From positions 1 through 64,000 of IMG/VR virus record IMGVR_UViG_3300031951_000093: 64,000 bases of DNA. One strand, written 5' to 3'. Source of the stretch: a virus. A program made the position numbers and the translations under genes. The notes below the pieces were generated by a model. That model ran no database searches and was not told the origin of the DNA. It saw only the letters and a list, made by a program, of their open reading frames with translations. Shown here in pieces: positions 8,818 through 58,194 of the stretch (position 1 is its first letter; each line of letters begins with the position of its first letter).

Positions 8818-9882
8818 TCATCGCTCCCCCTTGAGGCGTGCTTTCTGTTGATTGATCGTGCGCTTGTACCAACCCGGCAAGACTGCTGCCGATGGTGATA
8901 CAGAATAACCAGGCCAGTAGTCAATCTGTAAAGACAAATGAACTTTGTTGACTGCAAGTCGATACAGCGACCTGCCATCACTTAATTGCTCATCAGTCAT
9001 GTAATAACGACCGATAAACTCTGGTCCAATAGGATCCTTTTCGATAGCAACCCATTCAAATATGATTGGCAATATAATTAGCGAACCCTCAGCAAATCCC
9101 ATAATTTTTTCTAGCGCAGTACGGCAGTGATACAGTGCATCATGGTAGAATGCTGATTGCACGATGTAACCGTACTTGGCAATCGCTAAACCAAAATGTG
9201 ACTCACCTTCCCCTGCGTCTTGCGCTGTTTTTATATCACCAATCCAAAGGTGATCATCAAAAATACGCAATGAATCTATTCTTGCCTTGATTCGCCGCTT
9301 TGTTTGTGTATCAATATAGGTAAAGGTGATCTCATTAAGCATTCTATATTTTTCGGTCTTTTCGTATCTGTACTTTAAGATCGGATGTTGCCATAAGGCA
9401 TTGGCATAAGCAAATCCCTTTGAGTAGTTGGCTTCTGATACAATCTCAGCCGTGGGCGGCAGATTGGTTTTCTCCCACTCAATCCACTGATCTTCGATTG
9501 CTTTATATTCTTTCCATGTTTCATAAGCTTTAGCAGGCTTGCCGCCTTTAGTCAGTCGATCAGGTTCTATGAGCTGCTTTTCTGTTGGCCTTTTTGGTAG
9601 ATCAGGAGCCAATACATAACGTGAGGAAACCTCATCCCATTCGAGCACAAGCGCATGAGCGATATTGCCCTGGATGAAAGCGTCTCTTTCCTCCTGTTCT
9701 GGCCTATTGGGATCAATGCACTTTTTCCAGGCATGTGCTTCTGTTGAGCCGATGACTTCCTTGCATAAACTTGCATTAATACCCGGAAGATCATCATAAG
9801 CCTCACGCGGAAGCTTGCAAAAAACTTGAGGAGAGCTTGTTAGTTCAATGCCCCATTTTTGCTGCCATTCAGCTTCATTCAT
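8818..9882 (-). CDS. RecE/exonuclease VIII-like PD-(D/E)xK nuclease (DUF3799 type)
   Basis: GINAS, GNIAHALVLE, IKARIDSL, DIKT and YGYIVQSAFY motifs. Confidence 0.8.
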   Translation of the reverse strand: MNEAEWQQKWGIELTSSPQVFCKLPREAYDDLPGINASLCKEVIGSTEAHAWKKCIDPNRPEQEERDAFIQGNIAHALVLEWDEVSSRYVLAPDLPKRPTEKQLIEPDRLTKGGKPAKAYETWKEYKAIEDQWIEWEKTNLPPTAEIVSEANYSKGFAYANALWQHPILKYRYEKTEKYRMLNEITFTYIDTQTKRRIKARIDSLRIFDDHLWIGDIKTAQDAGEGESHFGLAIAKYGYIVQSAFYHDALYHCRTALEKIMGFAEGSLIILPIIFEWVAIEKDPIGPEFIGRYYMTDEQLSDGRSLYRLAVNKVHLSLQIDYWPGYSVSPSAAVLPGWYKRTINQQKARLKGER

Positions 9883-10421
9883 CAGCCATGCTCCTGAATT
9901 TGGTTGCAAGTGTTTCGAGCTTGCATACAACATCTTCTAATGATGTTGTTTCTTTTTTTTGCAGTTGAACAAGCTCATCAATCGCCTGTTCAATCGCATC
10001 GTTGATTTTGTCTTTTGGCATTTCTAGATAGCAAGGTTTGCAGGTAAATGATGCGCCTATCTTTTTGACGTATTAGGCCATGAAGTTTAGTTAGCTGTAG
10101 TCTATGTCTGCGATCATCAAGGGAAGGCCGGAAGAAATATCCGGCCACAAATCCAAATCCAAGCGCAGATGCTGACAACAGTGCTAACGCCAGTATTCTA
10201 GGCATTGGGGTCGTCAGGCTTGAAACTGCCGCAATTGATGTCAGTAAGTGCGCATTGATAGCCATAGCAAGCTCCTAGGCGAATTGCTTCATGCCAAGCG
10301 GCAAGGTTTTTGATGTTAGAATTAGGTACTTCTGGATCCATCTTTAGCGCAGCTTGCACCATGATAAATTCCAGCACTTCAGAAGGTACGTCTAATTCTT
10401 TCAAGGGAATAACGACTTCAA

Positions 10422-11516
10422 TCATACCAGCTCCTGCTGAACGTCATCATCAGCCCCAGAATCGACCTGTAACTCGCTGATCTCTTCATCTGTGAGGATT
10501 TGAGGGCCATCGCCGCCAGAAGCGCAACCCATGTTCCATCTCTTAACTGATGTTTCATTGCCTAATCCGCCGATCACATCTCGGAAGTTGACGGCCGGGA
10601 GCGATTCTAGGCCGTCAATCTGAAAACAGGCGCAAACATCCATCTCAAAAGCCCTGGCACCAACAGCCGACAGACACTTTGACATGGCCGCATCTAATCG
10701 ACTGCGCTGCTCCTCCGTCAGGGTGGCGTCAGAATCGGGAGCGGCACTAGAGGATGGTTGCAGCGTCGCTGGGGCCGCCGTGGGTGCTGCCTCAAGTATT
10801 GACGGCGCCGTGCCGCCTAGCGGCTGTGCGGCGGGCTCTGAAGAGTCGCCATCCGGCATTGTTTTTCCTGACATTTGTTGATAGCAACGCGACAAAAACT
10901 TTCGTGTTGCCTTGCCAATCAACTGATCAGCAGTGCTGTACTGATCAGATTTGACCGGAATAGTTGCCGCAAATGACACGGTTTTTTCTTGTATCCATGT
11001 AGCGGAACACTCTACAGTGACACCGCCAGTCGAAGACTTTGGAACTCCGATATTCAACTGAAAATCAGTGATTGGAGCTACTTTGATTAGTGCTTCAAAT
11101 CCCTCTTTAGTGCAATAGAATCTGCCTGCGATGATATTAAATTGATTGCCGACCAACTGTAATCCGCGCAGCAATGCTTCAATAGCAGCTTCTTTTACGA
11201 TCTCATACTCATAGGGAGTATTCGGCCTGTAGCTTCCGTCTCTATCTTTTTTCTTGATCTTTGGATCCCGGTCGGTTCTGAATCCGAGGGGCGAATCTTG
11301 CAGGGCAACAATTGCTGATCTGATTCCCGGATCATCGAAATATGTTCGCAGCGATTGAATTGCAATAGCAGACTTGAGAGCAGCCACAACACTTCCTGAT
11401 GTAGCATCAGAATAAACTGCAGTGGCTTCAGTGGTAGCTGATTGCAAGCCATTTAAGGCGTTATCTGAGATAGATAGCGCACCGGCTTTTGGTTTGGGAG
11501 CTAAAGAACTTGTCAT
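10422..11516 (-). CDS. hypothetical protein, possible ssDNA-annealing partner of the exonuclease
   Basis: Co-oriented upstream of the RecE-like gene; GLQLVGNQFNIIAG..Y.TKEG segment and acidic tail; function is inference. Confidence 0.4.
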   Translation of the reverse strand: MTSSLAPKPKAGALSISDNALNGLQSATTEATAVYSDATSGSVVAALKSAIAIQSLRTYFDDPGIRSAIVALQDSPLGFRTDRDPKIKKKDRDGSYRPNTPYEYEIVKEAAIEALLRGLQLVGNQFNIIAGRFYCTKEGFEALIKVAPITDFQLNIGVPKSSTGGVTVECSATWIQEKTVSFAATIPVKSDQYSTADQLIGKATRKFLSRCYQQMSGKTMPDGDSSEPAAQPLGGTAPSILEAAPTAAPATLQPSSSAAPDSDATLTEEQRSRLDAAMSKCLSAVGARAFEMDVCACFQIDGLESLPAVNFRDVIGGLGNETSVKRWNMGCASGGDGPQILTDEEISELQVDSGADDDVQQELV

Positions 11517-29288: not shown

Positions 29289-29361
29289 GGCGGCCTAGCA
29301 ATCTGGAGAATGCAGTGGCCTCATAAGCCTCCGAAGGTGGGTCCGATTCCCACGGCCGCCA
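29289..29361 (+). tRNA. tRNA with CAT anticodon (Met or Ile2)
   Basis: GGCGGCC/GGCCGCC acceptor stem, CTCATAA anticodon loop, GTGGG/CCCAC T-stem; atypical T-loop. Confidence 0.75.
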
Positions 29362-37854: not shown

Positions 37855-40167
37855 GTGTCTGATTTTCCAGCATCTGCGCCCGCCGCCAATCCGGTTTTCT
37901 GCCGTACCTATAGTCGCAAGGGACCACAAGGTCGCGAGAGCTGGCAACATGTCGTAGAGCGTAATCTGAGCGGTCTGGCGAAGCTTGGTCGCCTTAATGA
38001 TGATCAGGTTGCCCTATTGCGCAAGATGCAACTAGAGCAGAAAGCGCTACCTTCAGGCCGTTGGTTGTGGGTTGGCGGTACTGACTGGATTGATAAGCCA
38101 GAAAATGTAAGCGGTGCATACAATTGTACGTCAACGGATCTAACCGATTGGCGTGCTTTTGCGTTGATGATGGATTTAGCGATGATGGGTAGTGGAACTG
38201 GCGCCATCATTGAGCCTCACATGGTTGATATGTTGCCGGTGATTCGGAATAGGTTGAATGTAGTTGTTACAGGTATATTTGGCCAAGCGTCTTCAGATCC
38301 ACAAACTAGCGTTGAATATCACACTGTGTATCTTGATGAAGATTATACGCCAAGCATTGATGTATTAATTGAAGTTGGCGACAGCCGTAAGGGATGGGTT
38401 GACGCTTACTACACAATGTTTGAACTTGCCAGTAATGCCTCCATTTCGGCTTTATATGGAGAAAATACCCAAGTTGCCGTAAGTGTTGATATATCCAAGG
38501 TTCGTCCTTCTGGCTCGCCACTAAAAGGCTTCGGCGGCACAGCAAATCCAGTGAAGCTAAAGGATTTGTTTGTTAAAATGGCTGCGATTTTTAACAAAGC
38601 TCAAGGCAGAAAACTTACATCAGTTGAGTGTTGTTTGCTTACGGATGAAGCGGCGTTAGTTGTAGTTGCCGGCAATGTGCGTCGTAGCGCTTCAATTAAA
38701 CAATTCAGCGCAAATGATACCGAGGCAAGTATAGCAAAAGACAACCTATGGCAGCAAGATGAAGACGGCAACTGGCGCATTGATCCTGAGCGTGATGCTT
38801 TGCGCATGGCGAATCACACCCTAGTCTATCATAATTATCCAACAAGAGAAGAGATCGTAGATTCTGTCCGCAGGCAATACCTATCGGGTGAAGGTGCGAT
38901 TATGTTTGCTCCTGAAGCTATTGCAAGATCAAATCGTGATATTTTGACCGATAGGCAGATGCAAATTGATTTTATCTCAGCTTATTGTGATCACAAGCAA
39001 AGTGGTGCTGAGATGATTAAGCAGTTGGATCCTGATTGCGTGGAAGATAGTGATAAGCTAGAACATAGAATGGGCAGGTATGGGATTAACCCATGCGGCG
39101 AAATTCAAGGTAAAAACTTTCACTGCAATCTAGCAGAAGTGCATCTAAACCAGCTATTACCATCCGATCGGCTGGGGCAACAATCAGCATTCACCGCCGC
39201 TGCTTTATCTGTTGCGGCATTGTTACATCATAAGTTTCAGGAGCCACGTTATCAGTACAGCAGAGATCTTGATCCTATCGTTGGTGTAAGTTTCACGGGA
39301 TTGTTTGACTTTTTTGTTGAGGCATTTGGTGTGCCATGGCTTGAATGGTGGACAGAGGGAAGGCCTAATAATTATGTGGGGATTGCATATAAAGAAGCTG
39401 AGGCGGCTTATTTAAGAGAATGGCGTGAAATTGTAGAAGATGCTGTTCGGAAGTATTGCGATGATCATGGGCTGAAGTGTCCTAATCGCATGACGACATG
39501 TCAACCGGCCGGGACCAAGAGTCTTCTTACTGGTGCGTCACCAGGCTGGCATCCGCCGAAGGCGCAGCGCTTCATCCGTCGCATCACCTTCCGCAGGGAT
39601 GATCCCGTGGCCCTGGCCTGCCTCGATTATGGCTACACCATTGTGCCTAGCCAGAGCGACAAGGATGAGCAGGGCCGCCTATTGGATGATCCCTTTGATC
39701 CGCGCTGTACCGAGTGGCTCGTGGAGATCCCCACGGAAGTGAGCTGGGCCAACCTGCCGGGAGCGGATCAGATCAGAATTGATCAATTCTCAGCCCTGGC
39801 TCAGTTTGACTTCTACATGCAAGTACAGACGCACTATACAAGGCATAACACATCTGCCACGATTGAGTTTAGGGAGCATGAAATTGAGCCCTTGGCTGAT
39901 AAGATTCATGATGCAATCGTGAATCATAAAGGCTACATTTCCGCCGCTTTACTGGCTCGCTTTGATGCAAACGAAACATTCCCCCGCCTGCCTTTTGAAC
40001 CGATCGACAAGGCAACATACGAGCGCCTTCATGAAGAAGTGTTACAACGTCGCAAAGGGGATGACTTTTTTGCGCTGCTTCAGGCCTATGATAGCGGGAG
40101 TTTAGTGGAGGCTGGCCCTGCAGGATGTGACTCGGATAAGTGCTTGCTGCCGCAGGCTAAAAAGTAA
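37855..40167 (+). CDS. nrdJ: class II (adenosylcobalamin-dependent) ribonucleotide reductase
   Basis: ALPSGRWLW, AYNC, VVAGNVRRSA, GINPCGEI, CNLAEV, CQPAGTKSLL and C-terminal GCDSDKC. Confidence 0.95.
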   Translation: MSDFPASAPAANPVFCRTYSRKGPQGRESWQHVVERNLSGLAKLGRLNDDQVALLRKMQLEQKALPSGRWLWVGGTDWIDKPENVSGAYNCTSTDLTDWRAFALMMDLAMMGSGTGAIIEPHMVDMLPVIRNRLNVVVTGIFGQASSDPQTSVEYHTVYLDEDYTPSIDVLIEVGDSRKGWVDAYYTMFELASNASISALYGENTQVAVSVDISKVRPSGSPLKGFGGTANPVKLKDLFVKMAAIFNKAQGRKLTSVECCLLTDEAALVVVAGNVRRSASIKQFSANDTEASIAKDNLWQQDEDGNWRIDPERDALRMANHTLVYHNYPTREEIVDSVRRQYLSGEGAIMFAPEAIARSNRDILTDRQMQIDFISAYCDHKQSGAEMIKQLDPDCVEDSDKLEHRMGRYGINPCGEIQGKNFHCNLAEVHLNQLLPSDRLGQQSAFTAAALSVAALLHHKFQEPRYQYSRDLDPIVGVSFTGLFDFFVEAFGVPWLEWWTEGRPNNYVGIAYKEAEAAYLREWREIVEDAVRKYCDDHGLKCPNRMTTCQPAGTKSLLTGASPGWHPPKAQRFIRRITFRRDDPVALACLDYGYTIVPSQSDKDEQGRLLDDPFDPRCTEWLVEIPTEVSWANLPGADQIRIDQFSALAQFDFYMQVQTHYTRHNTSATIEFREHEIEPLADKIHDAIVNHKGYISAALLARFDANETFPRLPFEPIDKATYERLHEEVLQRRKGDDFFALLQAYDSGSLVEAGPAGCDSDKCLLPQAKK

Positions 40168-41367: not shown

Positions 41368-43398
41368 CGCCAAAAATCCCCGGCTGGGGCATTGCAAAGG
41401 CCATGATTATTGAGACACGTAAAGCGCCAGATGGACGCACGGAGGCTTGTATTTTGCCGCCAGAACATGAAGCACCTTTTTGGGTGGATTTGCAGCAGAT
41501 TGCGCAGTTTAGGGGGAGGTTCATATATGATGAGAAGGCATCTTTGGCTCAGGAGCCTGGCGACGATGATTCCAGCAAGGATTCAAATTAAGGATGGGGT
41601 TGTTCATAGAATGGATGAATTTATTTTATCGCTTGATATGCAGACGCCATGGGTTCGAGAAGTGTTTACTAAAGATCAGCTTGAATACTGCCGCATCACC
41701 AGAAAAGCCAGAGCAAAGAACAAGTCAATTCGCCCTAGGTTGATTGGAGGTTGATTATAGTGAGCCAAACAGGATGGAATCAACTTACTCAAGAGTGTCC
41801 AGAAATTTTGCAGCTAATGGCTGAACTTCCATTGCACATGAGACCTGGCATGATAAACGCTGTTTATGATGCAAAAAGAGGTGTCGAATTAAATGCGCTA
41901 TCTGATTGGCTTGTAAATTGGCTGTGTTTTTGCAATGCTCGCGACACAGAGTTATGCGCCAATGTTTACTCTCTTCTTGAGAAACTAGGAAAAGTATCTT
42001 CAACATGGCGCATTAAGAATTGATCATGGAAAATCTTTATGAAATGATTAAAGCCCTGGAGGCCAGGGTAGAAGAGCTGGAGTCTGCAAAAAGATTTGTA
42101 ACAACTGCTTCGAAGGATCCGCATCCTGGCGACAATGGCAATGCCCCCAATCGACTGGCTTTTATGAAGGATGAATTTCTTCCAGACCTTCCCAAGCCTT
42201 TTCCCGCCAATCTCAATGATCTCTACGACCCGACCTTCAGCGACGGATTGAGCCCGTCTGAGCACCTGGACCGCCTTTATGGCCACCGTGCGGCTCCACC
42301 GCACCCGGCAGAGGATCCAACCGACGACGAACTGTTGCGCGCCTATGACACCGCCAAGCGCAAGGACTACTACGAGGGCCTTCCCGGTGAAGGCTGGCAC
42401 TGGCGAGGCGAAAAGGAGGCAACTGTCTGCGGCCTTCGCGCGGTGATCGCCCGCTATGGCCGCCCTGCCCTTGAGCCCGTCACAAAAGGCAACAGACCAA
42501 TCTCAAAGATTAGTTCAATCTCAGAGATCAGGTCCTTCTATAACGAGGATGGCGAATGCTGGTGCTTTGAAAGGGCTGACGGGGAGTGGGATGTTCCAGC
42601 TTCCTGGCACTTACGCGTGCCATACCACGCTGATGAGTATTTTCTGCCGCATTATTATTTCCCGGTGCCAGGCAGCCATTCTCCTGACGCCACGAAAATG
42701 GCTGGGGAGGTGCAGCCATGAGCAACGCCACCAAACGCTGGCCCCTTGCCGACGCCGAGCACATCGCCGTCGGCAGCGAGCAACTGGGCGCCATTGCCGG
42801 CCCCGTGATGCAAGCGCCAATCCGTGAAGAGCTGAGGGCATTTGTCCACAGCCTGGAGCCATGGGCGACATGGTTAAAACCTGGCTCCTTGATTGAGGAT
42901 ATTGACCGCGATCTGGTCGATTTGATGATGGCCGCGTTGCAGCGGTTTGGCCGCCCCGCCTTCCATCCCATCCCGGTCTCCGAGCGGCTGCCGGGGCCTG
43001 ATGATTGCTGCCCCAACCCTCGCAATGGCCAAGGGCAATGGTGTTGGGGATGGGTGCAGCATGACCCGATCCTCTACGGCGGCCGTTGGCGAATGATGTG
43101 CCGCGAATGGCTCCTTGATGAGGCCCTGGCGTGGGCTCCATGGTGGGCGTTCCCTATACCAGGCAACCATTCTCCCGACGCCACGAAAATGGCTGGGGAA
43201 AACCACACACCACAAAGCTAGGAGGATCACATGACTGATTTTGAAGCGCAAGTGAAGGCCGCCGCCGAAAAGGCGGTGCTGCATTTCATCGAAAGCGGCG
43301 GATGGCTGCTGCCTAATTACCAAGGGCGGCTGAAGGTGCCCGAGGAGTGGATGGCCGAGTGTTGGAAGCTTGTGGACGCCGACAAAGTGCGCACCCAG

Positions 43399-43509
43399 AT
43401 AGCCCCGCTCGTAGAGCGCCTGAGCGCTGCGCATGGTGTCGCGGGCGGAGAGACGCAGCTTGCGGTTGGCCTCCTGCTGCAGGGTGCTGGTGGTGAACGG
43501 AGGCACCGG
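43399..43509 (-). pseudogene. topA: fragment of bacterial DNA topoisomerase I gene embedded antisense in a phage ORF
   Basis: Translates to [37 protein letters not shown], the conserved TopA segment before the catalytic Tyr; GC-rich; flanks unrelated. Confidence 0.85.
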
Positions 43510-45485
43510 GAAAGGCTTCGGGCGCTGGTGCGGGATCACATGGATTCCATAATGAAGGCCGGCCCCATGGCTAAACCGGAGGGCCAATCATGAGCCACCT
43601 TAAAATCCTCGCCGCAATCCTCTGCCCATGCGCCGCGATCCTTTGCCTATGGTGGTTAATCCACCGGCAGAATGGGGTGATCGAAAAACAAAAGGCTTCT
43701 ATTTCTGTGCTAGCTGAATTAATTAAAGATCATCGAAAAAAGCTGGCAGGTGCAGGCGTTTGCCGCTTTCATGCAATGCCGCAATGTGATGATTTGCTGC
43801 ATGGTAAATGCTGGCTCACGTGGCCAAACTGCAAGGGTTGGATATTTGACAGTCCAAGTGAATGCACCAATTGGAGTCACTGGCTGCCTTATTGGTTCAT
43901 TCCCCTGGTTACCGCGCCAACCGAGCCTCTCCGTCATGACAGCAAGCCCGCAAAGCCTTGGGAGGGCCAGCCATGACCACCTGCAACACCTGCAACAACA
44001 CCATCCCAGACCCCGCTGAGGAATGGCCCGACGGCAATGGCGGCACCATCTGCCAGGAGTGCTGGGAGACTGAGTCTTCCCGGATGTGGTGGGCGGCGGT
44101 GATCCCCCTCGATCAAGCGGATGCGCTGGGGGCGAGTGGAACGGCGGCGTGGGAGGGGCAACCATGCTCGCCCTAAGCGTCATGCCGTTGGGCTGATCGT
44201 TGCTCCTGCGGTCCGCCAGAGCCGCGCCCAATCTGGCATCATTCCATCACATCCACACCCCATGCCCACCCTCAGATTTGAAGGCTACAGCGACGACACG
44301 TTCGGTGAATACGCTCACACGAACAATGACTACGACAACTGCGCCAGTGGCGAGTCGATCGAGTTTCTTGTGGAAGATCCGTCAACAGGCTTTGCCTTAA
44401 TTGTGACTGGACAACATTGCCCTGGCAACTCTTTTGGCTGGTTGATTGGTGTTTCAAATGGAAATACAAAGTTGCCATTTCCGAGTTGGCCGATGAAATT
44501 TCAGCCACAAAAATTTCAGCCACAAGAAGAACCCTTCTTTGCTGATCCATGTTTAGTAATTGAAGCACCCGACGGCGTGCTTTTGCGCTGCCTGACCAGG
44601 GAAGTGGCAGCAATCCACCACCAATAGGAGGTAATTAAATGGCCGCCACCGATTTAATACGACTACAAGGCGCCAACGCGCGCGCGGCTGGTGTTGATTA
44701 TTTTTCAAATCCCTTCACGTCATTAGATCGGGTTCCGCCGCAACTGGGGAGGACATTGGCGATTGGGCCGCCAAAGTTAGGGCTTGGTGGGATGGGTGGG
44801 AAGTCGAAGACTTTTTAAGGCACGATTAATTAGCGGCTCGTCATGGCAAGCAATATGGTGTTTATTTGTGTCCACATTGTGATGGCACACATTTAACTAC
44901 CAAACTTGAAAATGCTGATTTATACGAGCCGTTACTTTATGTAACATCTTGAGCAGTGTTACGGATTGTTTCAACGCCAGCCATCAGCAGACTTGATGGC
45001 TGATAATTAGTTCACGGGGCAGAGATGCTCCACAATCTTGGCCCCCAATTCAATGAACTCCCCTCAATTAGTCTTTATTCACAACGGATACTGGTATTCA
45101 TACTACGAACCTAACGACATGAAAGAAGTTGTACTGTGGACAAGATATAAACTTAAGCCCGTTAGCGGCGAGAGCGTGCCGGTGAATGGTAGGCACAAAG
45201 CAATTGTCATTGATAGTAATATCTTAAGAATCATATCTGGCGGAGAATGGTACGGAGAATCAGTAATAAACTCTAATTTGAGTGATTTTAAGTTTGAATT
45301 TGATGATCAATACCATGATGACTTCAAGGCTGGCGCAACAAGAGGATTCACTGGCAAACGCGCATGTCATCGTGATTTTTATTATCGCCAGTGTGATGAC
45401 TGGAGATCTGGATATGATGAGGGCCGCAGAGCACGCCTAGCAGCGATTGAAAAGGCTAAGCTGCCCTTTTGATGATAAAATCTAA

Positions 45486-45598: not shown

Positions 45599-45671
45599 GC
45601 CGATTTAGCTCAGTTGGTAGAGCAGCGCTTTTGTAAGGCGCTTGTCGCCGGTTCGATTCCGGCAATCGGCT
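45599..45671 (+). tRNA. tRNA-Thr (TGT)
   Basis: GCCGATT/AATCGGC acceptor stem, AGCTCAGTTGGTAGAGC D-arm, TT-TGT-AA loop, GGTTCGATTCC T-arm. Confidence 0.92.
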
Positions 45672-46185: not shown

Positions 46186-46560
46186 ACCACCCCAATTTTA
46201 AAAATGGCTCGCATCACCATTGCCACCATCAAGCCCGGAACTGTGATTGAAGTTGGTTATCGCGGCAAAAGCATGGGGCCTTCTGAGTTTCTTGGCTTCG
46301 GCACGGATGACGAAACCGCATCGTTTGCATCTTTAGCTCAACTCAGGTGCAATGTTGCAGATGAAGATGCTCACCGTGCGATCTTTCGAGACGTGAAAGA
46401 TGGGTCCACCTGGGCGGCTTATAGGCTCAACAAACGTTGGGTCGTGGGCACATCTGCGGATTACCTGCAGTTTTTTGCTTGACTTATTTGTTTTGTGATA
46501 CGCATTGCTCCGGTCAATCCGGGGCTTTTTAATGTAGGATACAGGCGTTGCATTCGCTCA

Positions 46561-47178
46561 GTGCTTAAAAACGATCGCTGGATCAGGGAGCAAGCCGCCC
46601 AAGGGATGATCGAGCCGTTCGCGCCGGAGCTGGTGCGGGAGGTGGAACTGGTGGAGCCCGGCCATGCTCCGTTTGGTCACAGGCAGCGCCCCGTCCTCTC
46701 CTACGGAACTGGCTCTTACGGCTACGACCTACGGCTCTCGCCGAGAGAGTTCCTGATCTTCCGGCATGTGCCGGGAACCGTCATGAATCCCAAGCGCTTC
46801 AATCCGGCGAACCTTGAGCCCGTTGACCTGCACCATGATGAGGATGGCGCGTATTTCATCCTGCCCGCTCACTCCTATGGGCTGGGTGTGGCGCTAGAAA
46901 GGCTGCGTGTGCCGTCCAATATCACGGTAATCTGCCTAGGAAAGAGCACCTACGCACGGCTGGGGATCATCACAAATATGACACCTGCTGAAGCTAGTTG
47001 GGAGGGGCATTTAACGCTTGAATTCTCTAACTCATCTGGCGCAGATTGTCGAGTTTACGCGGAGGAGGGCATCTGCCAACTTCTATTCTTTGAAGGTGAT
47101 CCGTGTGATACTACCTATCAAGATCGCAAGGGAAAATATCAGCACCAGCCTGAGCGCGTCATTATTGCAAGGGTCTAA
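46561..47178 (+). CDS. dcd: dCTP deaminase
   Basis: MLKNDRWI, SYGYDLRL, GKSTYARLG, EASWEGHLTLE, EGICQLLF and Y.DRKGKYQ. Confidence 0.93.
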   Translation: MLKNDRWIREQAAQGMIEPFAPELVREVELVEPGHAPFGHRQRPVLSYGTGSYGYDLRLSPREFLIFRHVPGTVMNPKRFNPANLEPVDLHHDEDGAYFILPAHSYGLGVALERLRVPSNITVICLGKSTYARLGIITNMTPAEASWEGHLTLEFSNSSGADCRVYAEEGICQLLFFEGDPCDTTYQDRKGKYQHQPERVIIARV

Positions 47179-57828: not shown

Positions 57829-57891
57829 TTGGTTTGTTTCAGGATGCACAATCTCGCGCATCCTAAATTCCACCTATTAACAAAAGGTTTT

Positions 57892-58194
57892 ATGCCTGAT
57901 TCTGCATTCCTGCCGGTTGGCAATGGCAATGGCAATGGCTATGGCGATGGCTATGGCGATGGCAATGGTAATGGCGATGGCTATGGCTATGGCAATGGCT
58001 ATGGCAATGGCTATGGCTATGGCTATGGCTATGGCGATGGATATGGCAATGGCTATGGCTATGGCTATGGCTATGGCGATGGATATGGCTATGGCTATGG
58101 CTATGGATATGGCAATGGCTATGGCGATAGCAATGGCTATGGCTATGGCTATGGCGATGGCTATGGAACACCATCTATTAGGATTAGAAAATGA
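57892..58194 (+). CDS. Gly-Tyr/Asn/Asp repeat protein
   Basis: MPDSAFLPV(GX)nTPSIRIRK with X = Y, N or D. Confidence 0.65.
   Translation: MPDSAFLPVGNGNGNGYGDGYGDGNGNGDGYGYGNGYGNGYGYGYGYGDGYGNGYGYGYGYGDGYGYGYGYGYGNGYGDSNGYGYGYGDGYGTPSIRIRK
57919..58167 (+). repeat. hexanucleotide tandem repeat GGC(T/A/G)AT
   Basis: About 40 consecutive units seen directly. Confidence 0.95.

Follow-up and report, generated by a model that had tools for sequence, protein, structure and literature searches.

A short antisense piece of host topA in the conserved core of a small cyanophage gene: a likely scar of microhomology-mediated illegitimate recombination

A gene for a small phage protein, carried by an uncultivated 80-kb cyanosiphovirus, has had its most conserved core replaced by a short piece of picocyanobacterial topA in antisense orientation. 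The piece is most likely the scar of a microhomology-mediated double illegitimate recombination, like SPDIR (short-patch double illegitimate recombination) or by template switch, that probably disabled a small helical protein of the phage. The stretch of DNA analysed, called the window, is the first 64 kb (64,000 nt) of an IMG/VR virus record of 79,993 bp with a completeness rating of 100%. Its genes are laid out as in a lytic siphovirus, and the closest relatives of its terminase (TerL) are those of the picocyanobacterial siphoviruses S-CBS2, S-CRES1-3, and P-SS2, at 35-36% amino acid identity. The features of the locus are listed below by window coordinates and strand.

43220..43225, plus strand: ribosome-binding site AGGAGG, 5 nt 5' of the ATG of the patched ORF (read from the sequence)
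43231..43593, plus strand: patched ORF, 120 aa, of a small phage protein family (ORF list)
43231..43403, plus strand: native 5' part of the gene, 162/173 nt identical to the intact allele L160
43401..43403, no strand: left junction microhomology AGC, common to the native allele and antisense topA
43404..43505, minus strand (topA sense): donor-only segment, 102 nt of topA, codons for 35 residues (blastn to picocyanobacterial topA)
43506..43509, no strand: right junction microhomology CCGG, common to the native allele and antisense topA
43506..43593, plus strand: native 3' part of the gene, 65/85 nt identical to L160
43509..43399, minus strand: TopA peptide, 37 residues (translation)
43590..43976, plus strand: downstream ORF whose ATG overlaps the stop of the patched ORF as ATGA (ORF list and sequence)

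The 120-aa plus-strand ORF reads straight through the antisense topA segment. It belongs to a family of at least 84 homologues of 110-121 aa from metagenomes and viral contigs, none of them named; the family has no match in Pfam or PHROG, and a blastn search with the ORF found nothing similar among GenBank phages. The best conserved stretch of the family in alignments of 32 and of 88 sequences is the 32-residue core ARLESELADRMVNHMAAELATDIKQILSVKER, with a median identity to the consensus of 0.94 as against 0.80 in the flanks. The window allele has normal flanks and an identity of 0.22 in the core. Among the 88 aligned family proteins the core is missing only here and in one truncated fragment, and the patch is absent from the other 87. 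The preliminary description had proposed comparing homologues for an insert-free allele, and one was found: protein P0086 is identical to the window protein at 58/58 N-terminal and 25/28 C-terminal residues and is essentially the window allele without the patch.

For the intact family AlphaFold predicts a helical N-terminal part and a long helix at residues 50-107 (mean pLDDT 83), and a Foldseek search with this model against the PDB returned no match at E <= 0.001. The patch substitutes a Gly-rich stretch for residues 60-91, within the long predicted helix, and with this conserved mid-helix segment lost the patched protein is probably inactive. Another protein of the family, P0082 from a 791-bp ENA contig, leaves the family after ...ERIEA within the core and ends 27 residues on, which may reflect a separate disruption of this site, a truncation, or a contig artefact.

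The surroundings of the gene are variable. Across the relatives (loci L002 and L139-L161) the family gene has a different neighbourhood in almost every case, and the flanking ORFs of the window adjoin it in only one or two of those loci; the gene is conserved and its surroundings are highly mosaic. The ATGA overlap of stop and start is also present in the intact allele L160, and translation of the patched ORF may be coupled to that of the downstream ORF. On the 5' side, a 50-nt direct repeat of 90% identity (42659-42708 and 43150-43199) forms the 3' ends of ORFs 42020-42721 and 42718-43221. Both ORFs, which lack matches in Pfam and PHROG, end in a C-terminal motif beginning FP(V/I)PG(S/N) that makes them probable paralogues.

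Identification of the donor relies on both the protein and the nucleotide sequence. The 37-residue peptide of the minus strand matches solved bacterial topoisomerase I structures over its full length (E 2.6e-10), and 109 bp (window 43401-43509) give ungapped blastn matches to picocyanobacterial topA with E about 5e-42 per genome, far beyond chance. Every host alignment stops at window 43401 and 43509, though host topA runs on: past the match the hosts continue at once with (F)ITYMRTD and before it with unrelated codons, and the phage has neither. The donor-only stretch has a GC content of 0.70, higher than that of the remainder of the gene (0.59) and of the window as a whole (0.47). These observations bear out what the preliminary description had read from the letters, namely GC-rich, host-type topA DNA on the minus strand, in frame within a phage ORF, located just before ITYMRTD and ending abruptly on both sides. 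Its interval of 43399-43509 is right for 43401-43509, where the identity reaches 93.6% over 109 bp, whereas 43399-43400 are native phage bases.

The captured segment is limited to 36 topA codons and stops one codon short of the catalytic tyrosine motif ITYMRTD, while host TopA proteins have about 900-950 aa. It was considered as a working TopA gene and rejected: such a gene has Toprim and topoisomerase core domains that include the catalytic tyrosine motif, and 36 codons fall far short of these.

The donor was sought by a degenerate-codon scan of one genome per prokaryotic species, after which the loci were ranked by blastn. The 19-residue core peptide occurs at more than 120 places, cyanobacterial for the most part. 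The best nucleotide identity, 93.6% (102/109), belongs to Synechococcus sp. 1G10 and Synechococcus sp. J7-Johnson; in all, three different species tie at this value and none is closer. They are followed by the uncultured cyanobacterium MAG Ja2-D2 at 92.7%, and by Cyanobium gracile UHCC 0139 and other Cyanobium/Synechococcus genomes at 88-92%. Within the picocyanobacterial family the segment is matched in 270 of 401 genomes, with a best identity of at most 94%. A low nucleotide identity to any topA had been named as the result that would speak against the capture; the blastn comparison with Cyanobium/Synechococcus genomes gave 102/109 at best. The patch marks the host group as Synechococcus/Cyanobium-type picocyanobacteria, a call that is independently backed by the affinity of TerL. 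The idea that it pinpoints the host holds for this freshwater/estuarine group and fails for the species, given the three-way tie. A donor species with the exact 109 nt is not among the genomes searched.

The junctions were defined by a three-way comparison of the window, the intact alleles L160 and L161, and the antisense strands of host topA, with L160, the junction reference, being slightly more distant than P0086. The window follows the native gene through ...CAGATAGC, then topA from AGCCCCGCTC... to ...GGCACCGG, and is native again from CCGGGAAA.... At the left joint AGC sits in an imperfect extension, AGCyxCGC, with 6/8 matching. At the right joint CCGG sits in an imperfect gapped extension of about 16/21 columns with 2 gaps, GGTGGTGAACGGAGGCACCGG against the native GGGCGTGAAGGAGCGCCGG. 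In the exchange 96 native nt went out and 102 donor nt came in, a net gain of 6, and the centre of the patch is identical to the intact alleles at 55/102 positions, which is chance level. The preliminary description had spoken of an insertion; the alignment instead shows a replacement in which 96 native nt gave way to 102 donor nt and the most conserved core of the gene was lost.

The open reading frame through the patch is unremarkable, because the codon-aligned antisense phase of GC-rich topA genes is stop-free in 0.90 of 34-codon windows and the chance of an outcome both in frame and open is about 0.2.

The age of the capture can be gauged from the diversity of the hosts. The patch differs from its nearest host at 7 positions, and the median host-host difference is 11 among 34 distinct picocyanobacterial versions. 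One apparently private base of the patch gives Ser for Thr, and the natural TopA variants P0092 and P0094 carry the same peptide; two bases of the terminal Tyr codon are native phage sequence. The peptide read from the 36 donor codons is thus still, at every position, one that natural TopA has. The undecayed donor codons, the near-identical patch-free allele, and the position of the patch within host diversity together indicate a capture that is recent, as had been proposed from the first, and that came from a species whose topA nucleotide sequence is yet to be sampled.

The capture is also unique in the data searched. The topA peptide-coding segment is in no other IMG/VR contig on either strand. 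A comparison of the whole 80-kb genome with the five best candidate hosts returned no other match above 90% identity over more than 100 bp; the other host matches are whole genes of 65-78% identity (class II ribonucleotide reductase, dCTP deaminase, and one more ORF), two tRNAs, and a low-complexity repeat. The class II (B12-dependent) ribonucleotide reductase at 37855-40167 and the dCTP deaminase at 46495-47178 have 74-78% nucleotide identity to picocyanobacteria and look like older whole-gene captures, in contrast with the fresh topA fragment. The phage tRNA-Met (CAT) at 29289-29361 and tRNA-Thr (TGT) at 45599-45671 are each 76-79% identical to host tRNA genes. The segment 57990-58073, with 95-96% identity to hosts, was rejected as a second host patch, being a Gly-Tyr hexanucleotide repeat of low complexity; the ORF at 57829-58194 consists almost entirely of Gly-Tyr, Gly-Asn, and Gly-Asp dipeptide repeats encoded by a hexanucleotide repeat.

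The features of the exchange match SPDIR, in which ectopic single strands anneal at a replication fork through (extended) microhomologies with mismatches and gaps, and integrate like Okazaki fragments to give microindels of 3 to about 100 bp (bioRxiv 10.1101/2023.11.22.568220). An SPDIR-like or template-switch reading follows from the swap of a tract for ectopic DNA of nearly equal length, the microhomology joints, the identified donor, and the single occurrence. During infection, about 102 nt of host topA, as single-stranded or template DNA, would have been joined illegitimately into the phage genome as it replicated, at AGC on one side and at CCGG on the other, both lying within longer imperfect matches, and would have overwritten 96 nt of the small gene. 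Along the SPDIR route an ectopic single strand would anneal at the fork and be used like an Okazaki fragment; along the template-switch route replication would pass out to host DNA and back, which fits equally well. These two routes and break repair are inseparable from the sequence alone. The frame would have stayed open through a patch that is codon-for-codon antisense to a GC-rich gene with a net gain of 6 nt, and an open frame may have been favoured by continued translation into the downstream gene with which it overlaps at ATGA. We infer both the molecular route and this role of translational coupling. An illegitimate-recombination scar, which was among the possibilities first listed, is the best explanation. 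The patch has no demonstrated function of its own and is most likely a copying accident that occurred once.

The phage encodes a RecE-like exonuclease at 8818-9933 on the minus strand, which matches phrog_412 'exonuclease VIII' (E 2.7e-40), its PDDEXK Pfam matches being weak. The phage therefore probably has recombination functions of its own, and these may have played a part in the topA capture. The adjoining 363-aa ORF at 10422-11516, which is without a family match, could be a partner annealing protein.

The exchange struck the most conserved core, kept the frame, and hardly changed the length, which may be a sign of selection or of a targeted break in place of pure accident. A double-strand break directed to the core by host CRISPR or restriction, or by the homing endonuclease of a co-infecting phage, and patched by microhomology-mediated synthesis on host DNA, is an unlikely origin of the scar. 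Such a repair would share the joining chemistry of the best explanation and differ in its trigger, with escape from the target site being selected. The replaced stretch, as the most conserved of the gene, is the kind of site that such nucleases favour, and P0082 is disrupted inside the same core, but its 791-bp contig may hold a truncation or an artefact, and no nuclease gene adjoins the locus. A comparison of the native gene with the 401 picocyanobacterial genomes, a sample and hence a weak test, returned no spacer-like match; its matches of 19-41 nt were at chance level (best E 7.5e-5).

Selective retention of the patch as antisense is quite improbable. The plus-strand mRNA would pair with 109 nt of host topA mRNA, and the pairing would set off cleavage of that mRNA or block its translation, lower topoisomerase I, and shift supercoiling in favour of the phage. 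The patch is antisense to topA and lies amid tightly packed, co-oriented plus-strand genes, with a strong ribosome-binding site, and this gene block is presumably transcribed on the plus strand. The segment is complementary to topA of the sampled hosts at 102/109 positions, and with the actual host the pairing might be complete. During cyanophage infection RNA duplexes play a known part in the action of RNase E (PMC3113571), and regulatory RNAs encoded by phages exist (review PMC12197685). However, the antisense orientation alone has a prior of 50%, the pairing falls in the middle of the coding region instead of at the translation start, and a consensus scan found neither promoter nor terminator framing the patch, although cyanophage promoters may not fit the scan. 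The patch also occurs only once, being absent from the other family alleles and from other IMG/VR contigs, and its cost is a destroyed protein core. Similarly improbable is that the captured segment acts, within the phage mRNA, as a 109-nt antisense RNA against the topoisomerase I message, a freshly born regulator of host supercoiling that a single step of illegitimate recombination would have created.

An assembly or library artefact, in which host topA reads were misjoined into a phage contig, is very improbable. The record is a metagenome-derived IMG/VR contig, and no second viral contig with the same junctions was found: the junction-spanning 26-27-mers are absent from the other IMG/VR contigs searched, with records near that of the window excluded. 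In contrast, the joints share only 3 and 4 nt, far under any assembler k-mer overlap, and the path re-enters the same gene collinearly and in frame within 109 bp, less than a typical read. The exact 120-aa product is also present on nine contigs from NCBI, JGI, and ENA, which may not be independent.

The suggestion that the patch is a homology arm for recombination with, or integration into, the host chromosome at topA is most improbable. In its favour, RecA-type recombination can generally work with less than 109 bp at 94-100% identity. Against it, a single crossover in mid topA would break a housekeeping gene shortly ahead of the active-site motif, known cyanophage att sites lie in tRNA genes with the integrase adjacent, the layout is lytic, and the 100%-complete genome of 79,993 bp has no match to the tyrosine integrase family PF00589 (positive controls 14/14 genomes). 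An attP with a host-identical core was rejected for this lack of an integrase match. A DGR variable region or retrohoming was likewise rejected, as the phage genome has no match to the reverse transcriptase family RVT_1, the patch derives from host topA, and adenines are not the positions at which it differs from the hosts.

The locus is an unusually clean natural case of short-patch replacement joined at microhomologies: both the donor gene and the recipient family are identified, an almost identical allele without the patch is known, and the patch shows no decay. It suggests that SPDIR or template switching acts between host and phage DNA during infection, and that a short-patch process is able to replace even the best-conserved stretch of a gene. 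For an uncultivated cyanosiphovirus, the patch provides a culture-free clue to the host that is in agreement with the terminase relatives.

Several known systems have features in common with the patch. Phage mosaicism and the capture of host genes, as morons or auxiliary metabolic genes, likewise bring in host DNA without long homology, and the region around the patched gene is itself mosaic among relatives. In contrast, morons and auxiliary metabolic genes are usually whole and located between phage genes, while the patch is an antisense fragment of 36 codons within a gene and could not encode TopA activity. The antisense and small regulatory RNAs of phages and prophages share with the patch a possible pairing of phage transcript and host mRNA; the known ones are discrete and conserved and have their own signals, whereas the complementarity here lies inside an mRNA of one genome. 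FoSTeS/MMBIR and templated 'filler' insertions also copy ectopic sequence between microhomologies of 2-5 nt and return near the point of departure.

The likeness to SPDIR covers the swap of a short tract for unrelated ectopic DNA of similar length (96 to 102 nt), the placement of both joints at microhomologies within extended, mismatched, and gapped homology, and a donor that is found at an ectopic locus, here picocyanobacterial topA (102/109 nt). SPDIR was defined by experiment in Acinetobacter baylyi chromosomes, at very low frequency. The patch, in contrast, is inferred in a natural phage genome, has a host chromosomal donor, and is at the upper end of the size range. The Okazaki-like single-stranded intermediate is part of the SPDIR model, and FoSTeS/MMBIR were modelled largely on eukaryotic and E. 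coli stress-induced rearrangements, whereas the counterpart here is a footprint in sequence. The topA patch is no new kind of system; it adds a natural phage example to a known kind of event.
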